Of a stretch of DNA of 64,000 nucleotides, positions 6,359-29,549 are shown one piece after another. Where the stretch lies: positions 1 through 64,000 of IMG/VR virus record IMGVR_UViG_2866360957_000001; one strand, written 5' to 3'. The stretch comes from a virus. Its lineage: Duplodnaviria > Caudoviricetes. Position numbers and translations under genes: made by a program. Each line of letters starts with the position of its first letter. Position 1 is the stretch's first letter. Below the pieces are notes generated by a model. It did no database searches. It worked only from the letters and a program-made list of their open reading frames with translations, and was not told the origin of the DNA.

Positions 6359-7407
6359 TGAGCGACCTCATCACCCCGACCGCGCGCCTCCTGGCGCCGT
6401 CCGGCCTGCCGCGTGACGAATGGCTCGACGTCCGCCGCCAAGGCATCGGCGGCTCGGACGTCGCCGCGATCCTCGGCATGGACAAGCGGCGTGGGCCGCT
6501 GCACGTCTACCTCGACAAGCGTGGTGAACTGCGCGAAGAGCGCGATGCCAAGCTCGATCGGGCTGCGCGGCGCGGTCACCGCCTCGAAGGGCTCGTGGCC
6601 GAGTTCTTCGCCGAGGAGACCGGCCGGATCGTGCTCAACACTCCCGGAACGCTCCAGCACGCCGAGCACCCGTGGATGCTCGCCAACCCTGACCGGATCA
6701 GCTTCGCCGACAGCAACTTCGCGGATCCGGCCGTACTGGAGTGCAAGAGCCGAACCTGGCGGAGCGCGCGCGCCGAGGACTGGGGTGGTGACGAGCCGCC
6801 CGATGGTCCCGCCCTCCAGGCGTATTGGTACCGCGCCGTCACCGGCTACGGCAAGGCGCACGTCGCGGGCCTGGTCGATGACGACTTCGTGCACTTCGAG
6901 CTCGCCGACGACACCGAGCTCATCGGCCACCTCGTGACGCTGGTCGCCGACTTCTGGCGCGACCATGTGGAGGCCGGCATCCCACCGGAGCCCGGCGATC
7001 TGGAGAGCACTGACGAACTGCTGGGGCGGCTGTGGGACGCCACTGCGGACTCGTTCCGCCTCTTCAATCCAGAGGAGAGCAAGGCGGCCGACGCGCTTCT
7101 CGCCCGGCGCGCCGAGGTCGTCGCTGAGCGGAGGGCGCTGGAGCGCGAACTCGGCGCGATTGAGAACAAGCTCAAGGCCCGGCTCGGTGACGCTGAGATC
7201 GCCCTCGCCCCCGGCCGAGAGCTCTACTCCTGGAAGCGCAACGGCAACTTCGCCTACAAGCGGTTCCGGCAGGCATATCCCGACCTGGCGCGCGAGTACA
7301 CCCGTACGGCCAAGGCGATCGATGGCGAGCGCTTGGCCGCGGAGCAACCAGAAATTCACCGGCGCTTTCGCGCCCGCGTCTTCCGAGTTCCAGGGGGAAC
7401 CGTATGA
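6355..7407 (+). CDS. YqaJ-like viral recombinase exonuclease (lambda-exo/RecE type)
   Basis: WLDVRRQGIGGSDVAAILG, GHRLEG, PWMLANPDR, LECKS, QAYWY. Confidence 0.93.
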   Translation: MMSDLITPTARLLAPSGLPRDEWLDVRRQGIGGSDVAAILGMDKRRGPLHVYLDKRGELREERDAKLDRAARRGHRLEGLVAEFFAEETGRIVLNTPGTLQHAEHPWMLANPDRISFADSNFADPAVLECKSRTWRSARAEDWGGDEPPDGPALQAYWYRAVTGYGKAHVAGLVDDDFVHFELADDTELIGHLVTLVADFWRDHVEAGIPPEPGDLESTDELLGRLWDATADSFRLFNPEESKAADALLARRAEVVAERRALERELGAIENKLKARLGDAEIALAPGRELYSWKRNGNFAYKRFRQAYPDLAREYTRTAKAIDGERLAAEQPEIHRRFRARVFRVPGGTV

Positions 7408-8366
7408 GCAACCTCGGCCAACGAGTGGCCAACCGCGCCCAGGGCGGTCAGCGTCGCACCGGCAACGCCGTCGAGCTCCAGAAGAAGAAGGTCGCCACCG
7501 CGCGGCAGCTCTTCCAGCAGATGCGGCCTCAGTTCGCCGTGGCGCTGCCTCAGCATGTGAGCGTTGATCGATTCCTGCGCATGGCGCTCACGGCCGTCCA
7601 GAAGACGCCGAAGCTCCTCGACTGCACGCAGGAGTCCCTTCTCGCCGCGTTGCTGGAGTCTGCCCGCCTGGGACTGGAGCCCGGAACCAAGCAGGCCGCC
7701 ATCGTGCCGTACGGCAAGACCGCCACGTTCATCGCGCAGTGGCAGGGCCTGGTGGAACTGATGTACCGCTCCGGCCAGGTCATGTCGGTCACCGCAGAGT
7801 TCATCCACGAGAACGACCCGTGGAAATACCGGATCGGCGACGGCGGCACCTTCTGGCACGAGCCCGACGTGCTTTCCGGCGAGCGCGGGCCGATCGTCCT
7901 CGCCTACGCCTACGCCGAGATCAAGGGCGGCGGCCGATCGAAGATCGTGACGCTCAATCGCGGCGAGGCCGAGTTCGTCCGGGACAGGTACAGCAAGGCG
8001 TACGCCCTCGCCGAGCAGCATCGCCGCGAGGAGCCTGACGAGTTCGCCCGCGTCCCTGACAAGGGGTGGTTTAACTCGACCTGGCACACCGAATTCGACG
8101 CGATGTGGCGTAAGAGCGCCGTCCGCCGCCTCGCGGACTGGGTGCCGCAGAGCCCGGAGCTGGTGGAGCTGTTGCAGCGCGAGAACCCGGCCGGAGAGAG
8201 CGAGCCCCCGGAGGTCGATTTCGACTTCGACGGCGAGGTCGTCTCCGAGACCGAGGAACCCTATACACCTGATGGAGACCAGGCTGGTGCGCGGTCCGAC
8301 GTTGACGAGGCCGACTGGCCCCCGGTCGTCAGGCCCGGCTCGGGAGGCGGCACCGATGCCTCGTGA
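7404..8366 (+). CDS. recT: RecT-family single-strand annealing protein
   Basis: ALPQHVSVDRFLRMALTAVQKTPKLLDCTQESLL...LGLEP...IVPY; W.TEFDAMWRKSAVRRL; acidic tail; next to exonuclease. Confidence 0.93.
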   Translation: MSNLGQRVANRAQGGQRRTGNAVELQKKKVATARQLFQQMRPQFAVALPQHVSVDRFLRMALTAVQKTPKLLDCTQESLLAALLESARLGLEPGTKQAAIVPYGKTATFIAQWQGLVELMYRSGQVMSVTAEFIHENDPWKYRIGDGGTFWHEPDVLSGERGPIVLAYAYAEIKGGGRSKIVTLNRGEAEFVRDRYSKAYALAEQHRREEPDEFARVPDKGWFNSTWHTEFDAMWRKSAVRRLADWVPQSPELVELLQRENPAGESEPPEVDFDFDGEVVSETEEPYTPDGDQAGARSDVDEADWPPVVRPGSGGGTDAS

Positions 8367-19724: not shown

Positions 19725-20098
19725 AATCGCAACCGGTCAAGGTCGAGGTCGATTTGTCCACGATTGAAACGGTGTGCGCCGAGCTGCGTGAGCTGGTCCG
19801 CGAGGCCCACGGCGTCACCGGGGATCTGCGCAAGGCCGTGAAGGACGCCAGACGGACCGTGGAGTCGGACATCGCGCAGACGATGGAGGCCGAGGTGAAG
19901 CGGCAGGTCGCCGAGCTGGGCGAGGTCACCGCCGAGGCGATGCGCAACTCCGTGGCCAAGGTCGGCCGCGAGTTCGATCGATTGGAAGCGATCTTCCTTG
20001 GCGCCGACCCGCAGTCGAAACGCAAAGGGCGGCCGCCGCTGGAGGACCTCATCCGCGAGCACCTCAACTCCACCCGATCCCAGAGAGGAGACACCTGA
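19721..20098 (+). CDS. Hypothetical helical protein
   Basis: GAGGAG RBS, GTGA coupling. Confidence 0.7.
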   Translation: MKSQPVKVEVDLSTIETVCAELRELVREAHGVTGDLRKAVKDARRTVESDIAQTMEAEVKRQVAELGEVTAEAMRNSVAKVGREFDRLEAIFLGADPQSKRKGRPPLEDLIREHLNSTRSQRGDT

Positions 20099-20493
20099 TG
20101 AAGCGGAAGCACGCGCACGAGTACTCACCTGAGGAGTTTGACCGTGCCGTCACGATGATCCAGTCGGACGCGGACCTGCGCGCCGACATCGAGGCCATCA
20201 CCGGACAGAGCCTGGAGGGGAAGACCCCGCGCGAGCTGTTCGATACCTTCCGCTCGATCCAGCATGCCGCCGAGGTCCAGGCCGCCGTGGTCAACTACGG
20301 CCGGGCCCGTCAGGCCGTTCGGGACACCCGGGCCATGCTGGAGGCGGACGCGTCGGCCGAGGAGGCGCTGGGGCTCGCCCGCAAGGAGATCGAGCGCCTG
20401 GAGAAGTCCAACGAGGAACTGAAGCGGAAGAATCAGGCCCTGTCCGCCGGTCAGGGTGCGACGCCACTGCGGGTCGCTGGAGGCCGGGCGTGA
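20098..20493 (+). CDS. Hypothetical protein with C-terminal coiled coil, coupled to the Cas7-like gene
   Basis: GAGGAG RBS; LARKEIERLEKSNEELKRKNQAL heptads; GTGA overlap. Confidence 0.75.
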   Translation: MKRKHAHEYSPEEFDRAVTMIQSDADLRADIEAITGQSLEGKTPRELFDTFRSIQHAAEVQAAVVNYGRARQAVRDTRAMLEADASAEEALGLARKEIERLEKSNEELKRKNQALSAGQGATPLRVAGGRA

Positions 20494-21245
20494 GCGCGGC
20501 CGACATCTTCGGGATCGCTGAGCCGGTCGCCACGTACCGCGTGCGGCTCCAGGTGCACAGCAAGATCGTGGGGGGCGTGCCATCGAGCTCGTCCGTCATC
20601 AAGGGCTGGCTGAAGACGCGCCTCGACCTGGGCGACCGCGACCTCCAGGAGCTGGCGGAGCAGACGTTGCGCGAGCGGTTCCCGGACCGCCAGCCGACCG
20701 CCGACGCGCTCGCCGGGGCGCTCATGGAGTCGGAGGCCGCCGAGCTGTCGGTGAACGGCTTCAAGCGCTTTGGGGACGTCCTGACCTACGAGGCGCGGTG
20801 CATGAAGGCCGCGATCAAGGAAGCGATGAACTCGGCGTATCCCGGCACCGACTGGGACGGAAAGAAGGGGGCCGGTGCCCACAAGCCGAAGATCGGCCAG
20901 CCGCTGCCCGCGAGCTTCCGCAAGGGCCTGATGAGCACCGCCGCTGAGCGCGTGTTCGTGGTCGGCGATGTGCACCGCGACTACATCTCGCTCGGTGTAA
21001 GCGCGCCGAGTGGGATCGAGGAGCGGGTGAAGCACGTCAAGACCCCGCAGGGGCCTAGGTCGTCGATCGCGCGCGTGGAGTACGTCGAGTGCCCGACCTT
21101 GAGTTTCACCGTGCGCGTGCACGACGACTTCCTGTCGCGCGAGGCGTGGGGCCGGATCTGGGTTCGCCTTCAGGACATCGGGATCGGTGCCGACCGCAGT
21201 AGGAGTGATGGGCAGTTCGAGCTGATCACCTGGGAGCGGGTGTGA
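20490..21245 (+). CDS. Stand-alone Cas7/RAMP-superfamily-like protein (251 aa)
   Basis: N-terminal strand YRVRLQVHSKIVGG; LTYEARCMKAAIKEA (cf. RAMP P.IPGSS.KGA.R); thumb-like ERVKHVKTPQGPRSSIARVEYV; C-terminal Gly-rich loop GIGADRSRSDGQFEL. Confidence 0.75.
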   Translation: MSAADIFGIAEPVATYRVRLQVHSKIVGGVPSSSSVIKGWLKTRLDLGDRDLQELAEQTLRERFPDRQPTADALAGALMESEAAELSVNGFKRFGDVLTYEARCMKAAIKEAMNSAYPGTDWDGKKGAGAHKPKIGQPLPASFRKGLMSTAAERVFVVGDVHRDYISLGVSAPSGIEERVKHVKTPQGPRSSIARVEYVECPTLSFTVRVHDDFLSREAWGRIWVRLQDIGIGADRSRSDGQFELITWERV

Positions 21246-21915
21246 GGTTCCGTTCCAGCGACGCCGTATCCGACACGGCTAGCCCAACCATGCTGACAGC
21301 CCACCGTTGCTCTTCGCGGGACGACCTGCCCGGCCCTGCCTCCACGGTCCCGGCCTCACCACGCCGACACCCCAGCTCTAGTCACGCGCCCGCCGCATCG
21401 GCCCGCTTCGACTTGCCTTGCTCGCGTCTGCTCATGCCAGGCCGTCGCACGTCAGCCCAGATCGACACGTCGAGCCGCGTCAACGCCAAGCCCTGTCGCG
21501 CCCGTCCTGTCCGCGCCGACCAGCCTTGCCGGGCCAATCCGCTGCTCTCCGCACCGACTTTTCGAACCCAACCCGCCCATGTCCGGAGCCGTCCATGTCC
21601 ACCCCGTTCGACTGGCCTACCGCTACCCGAAGCCGACTGTCTCCGCGCGACTGCTCTCCCCCAGCCAGGTCCGGCCAAGGCGACATCCCCACCCAGGGCA
21701 TGCCTGCCCGACCTCCCACCTCCATCCTGCCCATGCCGAGCCCCAGCGACAGGCCGTACCCAGCCTTTCCTGGCCCGGCGACACGTCATGCCGAGTCCCG
21801 GCGACAGGCCGTACCCAGCCTTTCCTGACCCTGCGACACGTCATGCCGAGCCCTGACGGGCGCGGACCGACCCACCCCGACACGCCGATCCTCACCTCAC
21901 CCATCCGGCCCACCT
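21246..21915. ncRNA. Pentamer-periodic array (NN-RCC/NYC)n punctuated by GAC; candidate guide-RNA array; transcribed strand unknown
   Basis: e.g. GAC ct-gcc cg-gcc ct-gcc tc-cac gg-tcc cg-gcc tc-acc ac-gcc GAC (21323-21368) and GAC ca-gcc tt-gcc gg-gcc aa-tcc gc-tgc tc-tcc gc-acc GAC (21518-21558); fills the gap from the Cas7-like stop to the next RBS. Confidence 0.75.
21748..21857 (+). repeat. 55-bp tandem duplication inside the array
   Basis: GACAGGCCGTACCCAGCCTTTCCTG...GCGACACGTCATGCCGAG at 21748 and 21803. Confidence 0.9.
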
Positions 21916-21925
21916 GGAGGTGCCC

Positions 21926-22243
21926 ATGACCGACTTGCGCCAGCGGTACGCCGCGGCGATGCTCGACAACATCTATCCGCCCGAAGAGATCACCGAGCGG
22001 GCGACCTACTGTGGGCGGGTCTTCCCCGCCATAGAGCGCATTCTTGCCGTACGCGACCAAGAGGCCGAGCGGCACCGCATCGAACTGGCGGCTGTGCGCG
22101 AAGCTCAGGATCGCGCCACACGGGCCGAAGCCGCCCTTGCCCGCGCTCTGGCGGTCTGCGGCCAGGCTCTGGCCACACCCGACGCCCCGGATCGCTGGTT
22201 TGTCGCCGCGCAGGTGAAGGCCGCCATCGAGGGGCGGCCGTGA
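21926..22243 (+). CDS. Hypothetical protein
   Basis: GGAGG RBS. Confidence 0.65.
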   Translation: MTDLRQRYAAAMLDNIYPPEEITERATYCGRVFPAIERILAVRDQEAERHRIELAAVREAQDRATRAEAALARALAVCGQALATPDAPDRWFVAAQVKAAIEGRP

Positions 22244-22560
22244 TCGCGCTGATCGTGCTGGGCGCGCTGGTCGTCTACGCGGCGGGATTCATGGCCACAG
22301 CCCGTGTGATGGCCGCTGTGGACCGCCGCGCGCATATGGAGCCTGACGAGGGTTTGATCACGCTGGTGGCCGCCGGTTGGCCCATCTTTGCTCCCGTCTG
22401 TCTCGTGCTCTTGATCGGAAGGCTGCTGTACCGCCTGGCCACGCGCGATGCCGGGATTCCTCGCGCCGAACGCCGCCGCCGGCAACTTGCCGAGCGACAG
22501 TCGGAGATCGCCGACCTGGAGCGCTGGCACGCCGCGTTCGACCACCGGGAGGATGGATGA
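22240..22560 (+). CDS. Membrane protein
   Basis: Two hydrophobic helices, GTGA coupling. Confidence 0.65.
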   Translation: MIALIVLGALVVYAAGFMATARVMAAVDRRAHMEPDEGLITLVAAGWPIFAPVCLVLLIGRLLYRLATRDAGIPRAERRRRQLAERQSEIADLERWHAAFDHREDG

Positions 22561-23195
22561 CCCCAGCCGAGGAGGTGCCCGCCCTCGTGGCCGAACTCAG
22601 GCCGCTGCTCGACCAGCTCGCCGAGCTGCTGCCCGAGCAGGTCGCCGATGCAGCGCGGGGAAGCGCGCAGCACCACAAGGTCACCGGCAGCCCCGCACCG
22701 TGGCACCCCGAGGCCGGTCCGGTGCTGCTCACCATCCACGCGGGGGTGCGCGAGCTGGAGCAGGATCTGCGGTATCACGTCGCCGGGCACACGGGAGCGG
22801 CCCGGGGCGGGTCCGATGCCAACACCGCGGCGGCGCTCGACTCGATCGAGCGCCTGGTCCACGGCGTGCCGGACGACGTGGCCCGGGACGCGGCGCGCCG
22901 CCTCGGTCGCTGGGTCGAGCGGGCCCGCCAGGTCCGCGACGTGGGGGAGTCCGAGCGGTGGATCCCCATCCACGTACCGAAGGGCCAGATCCCGCCCGCC
23001 TGCCCGTACTGCCGTACGTACAGCCTGCGGGTTGCGCAGGAGTCCGGGCGGGTGCGCTGCGCCAACCCACGCTGCACGGACGAACGAGGCGAGCGGCCGT
23101 CTGGCCGCATCGACAAGAACCAGATCAACGGAGATGCGATGCTCATCTGGCAGGACGGCCGAACGATCTACTACAGCCCCAGGGAGGCATCATGA
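22557..23195 (+). CDS. Phage protein with C-terminal Zn ribbon (possible late regulator)
   Basis: CPYC...CANPRC. Confidence 0.7.
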   Translation: MTPAEEVPALVAELRPLLDQLAELLPEQVADAARGSAQHHKVTGSPAPWHPEAGPVLLTIHAGVRELEQDLRYHVAGHTGAARGGSDANTAAALDSIERLVHGVPDDVARDAARRLGRWVERARQVRDVGESERWIPIHVPKGQIPPACPYCRTYSLRVAQESGRVRCANPRCTDERGERPSGRIDKNQINGDAMLIWQDGRTIYYSPREAS

Positions 23196-29031: not shown

Positions 29032-29549
29032 TCTGACACCGCCTTCACCGCTTTCGGCCGACCACCCTTGCGCTCCCAGGTCGCCGCCCAGCGCCGCACG
29101 GCGGCCCCCGGCCAGATCGCCCCGGCCGCCAGCGTCTGAAGGGGCTGCGGGAAGTCGTCACGCCGACTGAGCTGATCGGCGCGCTGGCGGGTCACGTCGA
29201 GCAGCTCGGCGATCTCGCGCACGCCCATAAGCTCCGGGGGCGTCTGCCGGAGTTCTTCATCGAGCTCGTCCTCCGGGAGAGCCTCGACCCGCACCGCGCG
29301 GGCCGACACGCCGAACTCGCGCAGCGCGGCCGTCACCTCCCGCACGGCCGCGTCGATCGCCTGCCGGACGGTGGATCCGTCGATGCTGAGCTGGATGCTC
29401 ACCCGGTCGGCAACCTGCCTGCCCGCCGCATAGGCCGCGCCGGCGGCGGGGTGGCGCGCCGCGAGGCGCTCGCGCAGGTGCGCGTCAAGCGCCTCGCTGT
29501 AGTCGGCGCCGGTGTCGGCGTCGATCCGCACACTCCACACGGGCCTCAT
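29028..29549 (-). CDS. Putative antitoxin (HicB-like N-terminus plus AlpA-like HTH)
   Basis: ELMGVREIAELLDVTRQRADQL...DFPQP...GAIW; coupled downstream of the HicA-like gene. Confidence 0.7.
   Translation of the reverse strand: MRPVWSVRIDADTGADYSEALDAHLRERLAARHPAAGAAYAAGRQVADRVSIQLSIDGSTVRQAIDAAVREVTAALREFGVSARAVRVEALPEDELDEELRQTPPELMGVREIAELLDVTRQRADQLSRRDDFPQPLQTLAAGAIWPGAAVRRWAATWERKGGRPKAVKAVSE

Follow-up and report, generated by a model that had tools for sequence, protein, structure and literature searches.

What kind of element occupies a C-rich gap of 670 bases (21246-21915) that separates two plus-strand genes of a viral genome? The gap lies in the IMG/VR record IMGVR_UViG_2866360957_000001, of which positions 1 to 64,000 were analyzed (hereafter the window, to which all coordinates refer unless another locus is named). 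A sequence-only reading of the gap had proposed an array of GAC-delimited segments in which each segment is a guide coded by the dinucleotides of successive pentamers. On the basis of the grammar of the array, the predicted fold of the protein encoded directly upstream, and the viral context, the locus is probably an RNA-guided system of the VIPR (Viral Interference Programmable Repeat) type, situated in the early region of a Streptosporangiaceae prophage and composed of an accessory gene, a vipr-like RAMP gene, and a guide array of 650 bases.

VIPR has been described in 2026 preprints as a CRISPR-like, phage-borne, RNA-guided DNA binder (10.64898/2026.04.26.720920, 10.64898/2026.04.26.720927, 10.64898/2026.10.15.759431, 10.64898/2026.10.21.760802) and has been proposed as the ancestor of CRISPR backbone proteins. 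As set out in the published passages, a VIPR locus contains a lone minimal RAMP (Vipr), usually one vap gene, and no CRISPR array, and is found mostly in phages and prophages; its guide RNA (vrRNA) is built from 9-16 pentamers, each combining a conserved GGY triplet with a hypervariable dinucleotide (NN), and closes with a structured tail (10.64898/2026.04.26.720920). One Vipr protomer binds each repeat, with the triplet flipped into pockets and the NN paired with DNA, one base being skipped (10.64898/2026.04.26.720920, 10.64898/2026.04.26.720927); the third triplet pocket excludes purines, and an Asp-Trp pair reads the guanines in SUSP1 (10.64898/2026.04.26.720927). In nature the systems are directed against rival phages and satellites, which they silence at the level of transcription, and the target analysis used dinucleotide strings with gaps of 0-3 bases, searched in pangenomes at an 80% match threshold (10.64898/2026.04.26.720920). 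Seven types with varying architectures are distinguished, including the motif variants NNNGG, YNNNG, and NNNNG, and “staggered” arrays whose guides follow one another end to start (fig. S18, 10.64898/2026.04.26.720920), and a list of 21 clusters with a period of 5 includes the motifs GAC/NN and CAC/NN (10.64898/2026.10.21.760802). RNA data are given for types II, III, and V only, according to the published text, and the published Vipr sequence list has 2,664 entries.

Pentamer Grammar of the Array

The gap contains 308 C, 160 G, 101 A, and 101 T (46% C, 24% G), and the GC skew of the array is about -0.3, compared with near 0 in the flanks. Twenty-four GACs occur within 21246-21915, of which 19 are CGAC and that at 21295 is TGAC. 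All 16 GAC positions listed in the sequence-only reading are present, its 15 segment lengths (from 20 for the first to 29 for the last) are an exact consequence of them, and both of its example dinucleotide codes were recovered by an independent parse; the eight GACs that it left out are at 21260, 21320, 21635, 21827, 21855, 21865, 21869, and 21879, two of which it had declared. It had also described the segment lengths as multiples of five plus or minus one, a rule so loose that 60% of random lengths pass it. Lengths were compared with those in 13 distinct related loci (numbered with the prefix L; L003 and L010 are one locus, as are L004 and L013). Among CGAC-to-CGAC segments of the window (n = 18), (length - 3) mod 5 was 0 in six, 1 in six, 2 in two, 3 in one, and 4 in three, and the corresponding counts in the other loci were 72, 43, 38, 15, and 13 (n = 181). 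The period-5 excess at 0 therefore stands, but it is accompanied by an excess at +1 and +2 rather than at -1; the units thus consist of successive pentamers, among which a 6-base unit is occasionally found.

Both the CGAC count and the +5 spacing of GCC lay above those of all 300 dinucleotide-preserving shuffles. The window array contains 19 CGAC, compared with 8.0 ± 2.2 in the shuffles (maximum 14), and eight instances of GCC followed by GCC at +5, compared with 1.4 ± 1.1 (maximum 7). GCC pairs in the window are spaced at +5 (8) and +10 (8), with two at +4 and one at +6, and the +5 spacing is much stronger in relatives, for example 35 vs 3.3 ± 1.8 in L016. A VIPR-type grammar can in this sense be read from the raw sequence alone.

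When 12 other loci (13 rows, L004 and L013 being one locus) were phased on their 193 CGAC sites, NN was followed 3′ of CGAC by G59 C68 C85, then G44 C67 C85, then G37 C60 C75, and so on for at least six pentamers. The NN-G/C/C pattern is also present over three pentamers 5′ of CGAC, where the triplet before GAC supplies, as its final base, the C of CGAC. The grammar can be written ...NN-GCC NN-GCC, GAC NN-GCC NN-GCC..., in which GAC is a triplet placed directly after a triplet with no NN between them; on the minus strand the array reads (GGC NN)k + GTC. The commonest unit lengths are 33, 28, 38/39, and 35 bases. In L004/L013, a different pattern, some 10 head-to-tail copies of CAAGC(C), occupies ~2390-2445 (L004 coordinates) and forms a 6-base slippage tract within the 5-base grammar.

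The array begins with an entry element that includes a 5-bp hairpin. This element is kept in 12 of the 13 related loci, the exception being L021, with a loop length that varies from 7 to 16 bases, and in L012 and L016 the closing pair is altered on both sides (GCCGC...GCGGC) so that pairing is kept. Toward the other end, a 55-base unit has been duplicated recently, which suggests that the arrays grow by tandem duplication; this unit is the only repeat seen in the gap, in which Tandem Repeats Finder detected nothing of the size of a CRISPR repeat.

The array is single-copy in the genome to which the window belongs (hereafter the own genome), and a scan of that genome for other clusters of in-phase NNxCC runs found none comparable; the bin containing the array ranked first with just three such runs, 535 runs being scattered, and CGAC density by itself is not distinctive in this GC-rich genome. 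A 204-amino-acid (aa) open reading frame (ORF) at 21242-21856 was considered as a gene and rejected as an artifact of composition, no frame of the stretch having a coding-type GC content at third codon positions. Searches of the stretch against Rfam and for tRNAs gave no family and no tRNA, and no DNA similarity to cultured phages was found.

Linkage of the Array to a RAMP Gene

A C-rich stretch of 250-1000 bases lies directly after the RAMP gene in all 13 related loci, with 42-50% C, 21-26% G, and 7-28 CGAC. A C-rich array follows the gene likewise in 13 of 14 further IMG/VR loci and in the cultured cyanophage Microcystis phage Mae-JY09, in which the protein is 35% identical and the array is again rich in CGAC; Mae-JY09 would make a convenient experimental model. 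The motif lies on one strand, with CGAC:GTCG ratios of 16:0 and 18:0 in 500-base arrays and 21:3 in the wider C-rich stretch of the window. A second subgroup was represented by 19 IMG/VR loci found with P0170, 16 of which had enough upstream DNA. In 11 of these 16, the CGAC/NN-xCC grammar, C-rich on the sense strand, stands upstream of the RAMP gene, and in nine of the 11 the ribosome-binding site (RBS) and start codon come immediately after the last CGAC unit. Tandem pentamers with a conserved triplet and a hypervariable NN, placed beside a vipr-like gene as in VIPR loci, were found in both the window and its relatives.

Several arrays have local peculiarities. Many units of the subgroup with upstream arrays (L050-L066, IMG/VR; ~500 bases upstream of the RAMP gene) start with CGAC-TA-CCC. 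In the closest relative, L003/L010 from Spongiactinospora gelatinilytica, the RAMP gene and the array are separated by an inserted ORF of ~90 codons (2255-2537), hydrophobic-rich by eye, and the contig ends within the array. Strong GC-rich hairpins with no T-run separate the array from the next gene in L013, L015, L020, L014, and L022, and that of L020 is preceded by AAAAC, a T-run on the opposite strand; in Mae-JY09 (L022, PP395641.1 38459-38976) the array gives way to a perfect hairpin of 12 bp where the linear record ends. These distal hairpins may be terminators or 3′ caps.

Predicted Fold of the Upstream Protein

The gene directly upstream of the array encodes a 251-aa protein that is predicted to be a Cas7-type RAMP with a glycine-rich loop (G-loop). 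No match was obtained in Pfam or PHROG. Its AlphaFold2 (AF2) model (pLDDT 81, pTM 0.76, built on 26 sequences) had 111 Foldseek matches in the PDB at E <= 0.001 (best 3e-7, TM-score 0.26-0.47); among the matches listed, all were Cas7-type chains or Cas7-11 (CRISPR type VII, III-A, III-B, and III-E), including type VII Cas7 8z4l_F (3e-7), Cmr4 6s6b_I, Csm3 6xn3_F, and Cas7-11 7x7a_A. The sole three matches of the model among the viral structures of BFVD were phage RAMP-like proteins (best E 5.7e-12, TM-score 0.58). The C-terminal glycine-rich loop carries the residues G231, G233, R236, R238, D240, and G241, which are invariant in the family, and in the model residues 34-88 form a helical insert and residues 128-133 a thumb-like stretch of low confidence. 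Together these give the minimal RAMP described for VIPR, with an RNA recognition motif (RRM) core, a glycine-rich loop, and a thumb.

A word-indexed search recovered 285 relatives at E <= 0.001, all named “hypothetical,” from named hosts that include Nonomuraea, Microbispora, Streptosporangium, Sphaerisporangium, Actinomadura, and others. At E <= 0.001 the family has 908 cluster representatives, and at <= 1e-10 it has 570; most are from actinobacterial proviruses, and the family extends to the cyanophage Mae-JY09. Membership of the protein in VIPR would rest on its fold class, its context, and the grammar of the adjoining array.

The Cas7 proteins of type III (Csm3, Cmr4) and type VII and Cas7-11, the best structural matches of the protein, are RAMPs that polymerize on a guide RNA with bases flipped at a fixed period; the period here would be 5 with three bases sequestered, compared with a period of 6 and one flipped base for class 1 Cas7. 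The locus is otherwise unlike class 1 CRISPR-Cas systems: neither a repeat-spacer array nor CRISPR repeats, genes for Cas5, Cas6, Cas10, Cas11, or a large subunit, or adaptation genes accompany it, no cas gene or family match was found among nine neighboring ORFs compared with Pfam and PHROG, and the guide would not be a contiguous spacer.

Constraint on the Array

The array was compared base by base between the window and L010, whose RAMP genes are 85% identical. Substitutions affected 8 of 77 first and 7 of 75 second NN positions (9-10%), and 12 of 73, 10 of 73, and 4 of 76 of the successive triplet positions (14-16%, with 5% at the last C), while none of 27 GAC bases had changed. At third codon positions of the RAMP gene, 77 of 252 had changed (31%), and the lower rates in the array indicate that all of it is under purifying selection. 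Judged from these alignments, GAC and the last triplet C are the most protected positions, and NN, being at least as constrained as the first two bases of the triplet, do not behave as free spacers. The invariance of GAC, and its recurrence in all related arrays with an unchanged strand bias, partly bear out the proposal of the sequence-only reading that GAC marks a unit boundary. The NN strings of some units are kept at 65-70% protein identity, for example CA-TT-GG/GC-AA-GC in the window, L010, and L014.

One further unit, at 21409-21445 (beginning CGAC-TT-GCC-TT), is kept in the window, L010, L012, and L017, but loses the pentamer register after the second repeat; its role may be other than that of a guide.

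Comparison With Published VIPR Systems and a Possible Mechanism

The locus resembles the type II VIPR of SUSP1 in having a small, lone RAMP with a G-loop, a thumb, and a helical bundle, a two-gene operon with an accessory gene, a phage or prophage location, no CRISPR repeats or other cas genes, and adjoining pentamers of fixed triplet and NN on the strand of the gene. The two differ in protein size (251 aa here vs 195 aa for SUSP1 Vipr, with no detectable sequence similarity), in the triplet, which is xCC on the sense strand here (GGC antisense) vs GGT/GGY sense in SUSP1, and in unit size (4-10 NN here vs 9-16). Triplet conservation in SUSP1, over 62 pentamers counted, is G 79, G 92, and Y 93%. 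In the SUSP1 locus (KT454805.2), every GGT-NN tract has its own leader hairpin and ~40-base tail, and a sequence resembling a sigma-70-type promoter stands before the upstream tract (29172-29226), whereas the units described here have no promoter, leader hairpin, or ~40-base tail of their own, are separated by GAC alone, and share one small hairpin per array. The accessory protein, unlike that of the SUSP1 system, has no recognizable DNA-binding fold.

There is also a likeness to the non-canonical or staggered VIPR arrays of the published passages, in which a period of 5 stands beside Vipr-like folds with other triplets, GAC among the scaffold triplets, and guides adjoin one another. Unlike in the GAC/NN clusters, GAC occurs here once per unit, as punctuation rather than as the repeating triplet. 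Neither GCC/NN nor CCC/NN is among the motifs named in the published passages, and the supplements may already show this clade. The architecture of the clade, which is large and mainly actinobacterial, is distinct in its short units, GAC punctuation, absence of tails, and position within an operon.

By analogy with SUSP1, protein-RNA binding, DNA targeting, and silencing might proceed as follows. The array would be transcribed on the strand of the gene within the operon, so that the scaffold triplet would be xCC, mostly GCC, and not GGY. Each pentamer would be bound by one copy of the protein, with the fixed triplet flipped into pockets and the NN exposed, and the run of NN would pair with double-stranded DNA carrying the same dinucleotides with one base skipped between them, thereby blocking transcription of a rival mobile element. 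Where GAC directly follows the previous triplet with no NN, the 5-base register would be broken, one protein filament would end, and the next would start; GAC might be an RNase processing site as well. The outcome would be many short, tail-less guides. The chances are judged to be about even that this large clade uses a scaffold code different from GGY, with sense, C-rich GAC-NN-(xCC-NN)n guides carried in the operon mRNA and punctuated by GAC. If it does, the triplet pockets of Vipr would have been re-specified from G-G-Y to x-C-C, and guide boundaries would be set by a break in register, not by promoters, tails, or ribozymes.

Target Searches and Other Points Against a VIPR System

Several observations weigh against assigning the locus to VIPR. 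The family profile aligned to SUSP1 Vipr by hhalign with a probability of 0.1 and an E value of 0.46, that is, with no sequence similarity, and no solved Vipr chain appeared among the PDB matches of the 251-aa model; RAMPs share little sequence in general. A structured 3′ tail on each unit is lacking, there being one hairpin per array, proximal to the gene. Because VIPR architectures vary, the per-unit tail may be a feature of type II rather than of the whole family, as far as the published passages go (10.64898/2026.04.26.720920).

No natural target was found, and a skip of one base gave no better result than skips of 0, 2, or 3 or than permuted guides. Guides of the window searched against the own genome with skips of 0-3 and with permutations matched at chance level, and 95 guides of 14 loci searched against the window and the loci gave negative or chance results. 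For 45 guides of at least 7 NN from 12 loci, the own genome yielded 945 matches at skip 1, compared with 1083, 1029, and 1193 at skips 0, 2, and 3 and with 862-1099 for permuted versions of the same guides. In IMG/VR, two 8-NN guides had 6 and 17 matches, all on contigs of <=64% GC and chance-like, and the best 8-NN guide had 0 matches in 301 family genomes, in which its reversed control had 8. Adjacent units joined with gaps of 0-9 also gave 0 matches. A 10-Mb genome is too large for units of 5-6 NN to be unique in it, which weighs against each working alone; 5-NN units have 3-20 perfect one-skip matches in the own genome, about as many as permuted guides. Such chance matches of 5-6 NN units are the weakest point of the idea of many independent guides, and it may be that the short units act together or that the GAC-to-GAC segment is not the functional guide.

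The enrichment of gapped dinucleotide matches expected from the sequence-only reading failed to appear in the DNA searched, in which there was no excess over permuted guides or other gap lengths. Its idea of dinucleotide-coded guides corresponds in essence to the mechanism published for VIPR, and is borne out here in part by the neighboring Cas7-type RAMP and a pentamer grammar like that of the published vrRNAs. The scans of IMG/VR and of the 301 family genomes sought exact matches and came out at or below chance, whereas the published searches covered pangenomes and allowed mismatches, with an 80% threshold, and the absence of self-targets here agrees with the published passages on VIPR (10.64898/2026.04.26.720920). 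Two near-matches 1.2 kb apart were considered as a target and, lying in an rpsF-ssb-rplI housekeeping region, were judged to be chance. No recognizable motif emerged when the guides were read as codon strings.

A last adverse point concerns the scaffold, since the published triplet is GGY and the named variants all end in G, which fits the antisense strand here, within the published passages.

Strand of the Guide RNA

That fit is the starting point for the strongest rival, in which the same VIPR system would draw its guides from the antisense strand, as canonical (GGC NN)k + GTC convergent with the RAMP gene and with the hairpin as 3′ end or tail. Read on the antisense strand, GGC-NN agrees with the published GGY/NN motif, and NNNGG counts among the published variants; the published order of repeats followed by a structured 3′ tail would be reproduced, as the sole conserved hairpin would fall at the 3′ end; and a near-invariant Asp-Arg pair in the G-loop (D235, R236) may resemble the Asp-Trp pair of SUSP1 by position, a likeness suggested from location and not from alignment. 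The RBS of the next gene, however, lies within a few to ~35 bases of the array end in the window, L012, L018, and L019. In the window it begins 5 bases past the end of the array (21911), leaving no space for a promoter or terminator, and no promoter-like site was found on either strand at the far end. The array lies inside a co-directional operon in both layouts, so an antisense promoter would sit in unrelated coding sequences, those of downstream genes where the array follows the RAMP gene and the RAMP coding sequence itself in the subgroup with upstream arrays. SUSP1 arrays, moreover, are co-directional with vipr.

The composition of the triplet points the same way. Its last base is C or T in 89-96% of sense pentamers, which fits the purine-excluding third pocket of the published passages (10.64898/2026.04.26.720927), whereas the antisense reading places ~70% pyrimidine and ~30% purine at that position. 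The first triplet base is the least conserved in the sense reading, as in SUSP1 pentamers, and the sense RNA is weakly folded (minimum free energy -210 kcal/mol, z +0.45, compared with -317 for the antisense). Within a VIPR interpretation, these sequence features make the sense strand the likely source of the guide RNA, and the antisense alternative is unlikely, though it is the rival to be taken most seriously. Either a new xCC letter code or an array transcribed against its operon would widen the view of how RNA is read and how guides are delimited.

RNA Coat and DNA Element as Alternatives

A more distant rival is that a RAMP-like protein coats C-rich operon RNA with no DNA targeting, as a scaffold, a decoy, or a shield of the long untranslated stretch against Rho or RNases that would thereby control how strongly the early genes downstream are expressed, with the NN serving as spacers. 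RNA that is C-rich, G-poor, and weakly structured, as the sense transcript would be, is the classical Rho loading substrate, and the position of the array within the operon, the shortness of the units, and the lack of a target under any skip rule would all suit such a role. Free spacers, however, should drift, whereas the NN are as conserved as the scaffold (9-10% vs 14-16% changed, compared with 31% at third codon positions) and some NN strings persist across loci with 65-70% protein identity; in addition, the homologous published system uses NN as guide, so far as its description goes. These observations make a coat improbable compared with a guide array.

An element acting as DNA (origin iterons, a partition site, or a recombination hot spot) or functionless low complexity is very improbable, since, although one-strand motif bias and tandem duplication also occur in origins and centromere-like sites, the array is strictly linked to a RAMP-fold protein (the diversity of the 908 representatives having been sampled at 40-odd loci), its motifs all point in one direction with CGAC far commoner than GTCG, its 5-base period misfits helical phasing, and its signal is above all shuffles. 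Early ideas that rank as minor rivals were a ring-shaped binder like TRAP, a region for Rho loading, sites for a primase, and an origin.

Operon Neighbors and Prophage Context

The features of the locus and of the surrounding prophage are collected in Table 1. In 11 of 14 synteny rows (10 of the 13 related loci), the RAMP gene has a homolog of the partner gene as its immediate upstream neighbor, and none was called in L018, L019, or L021. The AF2 model of the partner (pLDDT 80) consists of three helices, the long one spanning residues 44-121, and the protein had no Pfam or PHROG match, no PDB fold at E <= 0.001, and no Atlas lead. The locus is therefore of the minimal kind described for VIPR, a RAMP gene with an accessory gene outside CRISPR-Cas. 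Within 20900-22300, no promoter-like or terminator-like site was found except one at 22368.

Table 1. Positions and properties of features in the window.
Feature	Position	Strand	Description
Small helical partner gene	20098..20493	+	131 aa; stop overlaps the RAMP start; candidate vap
Predicted Vipr-like lone RAMP (Cas7-type) gene	20490..21245	+	251 aa; fold match
Pentamer array	21259..21911	+	~15-19 units of GAC + k x (NN + xCC), k mostly 4-10
Array entry element	21259..21284	+	CGAC, 5-bp hairpin (21263-21267 with 21275-21279), then TA-GCC
Tandem duplication	21732..21853	+	55-base unit, 2.2 copies, 92% match, two units per copy (Tandem Repeats Finder and parse)
Next operon gene	21916..22243	+	~105 aa, no family match; GGAGG RBS at 21916-21920
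RecT-like single-strand annealing protein	7404-8366		phrog_148, 5e-66; same early region of the prophage
ORF two genes downstream of the array	22557-23195		phrog_1467, 7e-9; weak matches to a phage DNA-binding protein family and to DUF7341

The window is a prophage, as indicated by the presence of terminase, portal, tape measure, and RecT genes. Its viral or proviral setting, as is typical of VIPR loci, is shared by the relatives, which lie on IMG/VR contigs, and the nearest Atlas clusters are 94-100% viral.

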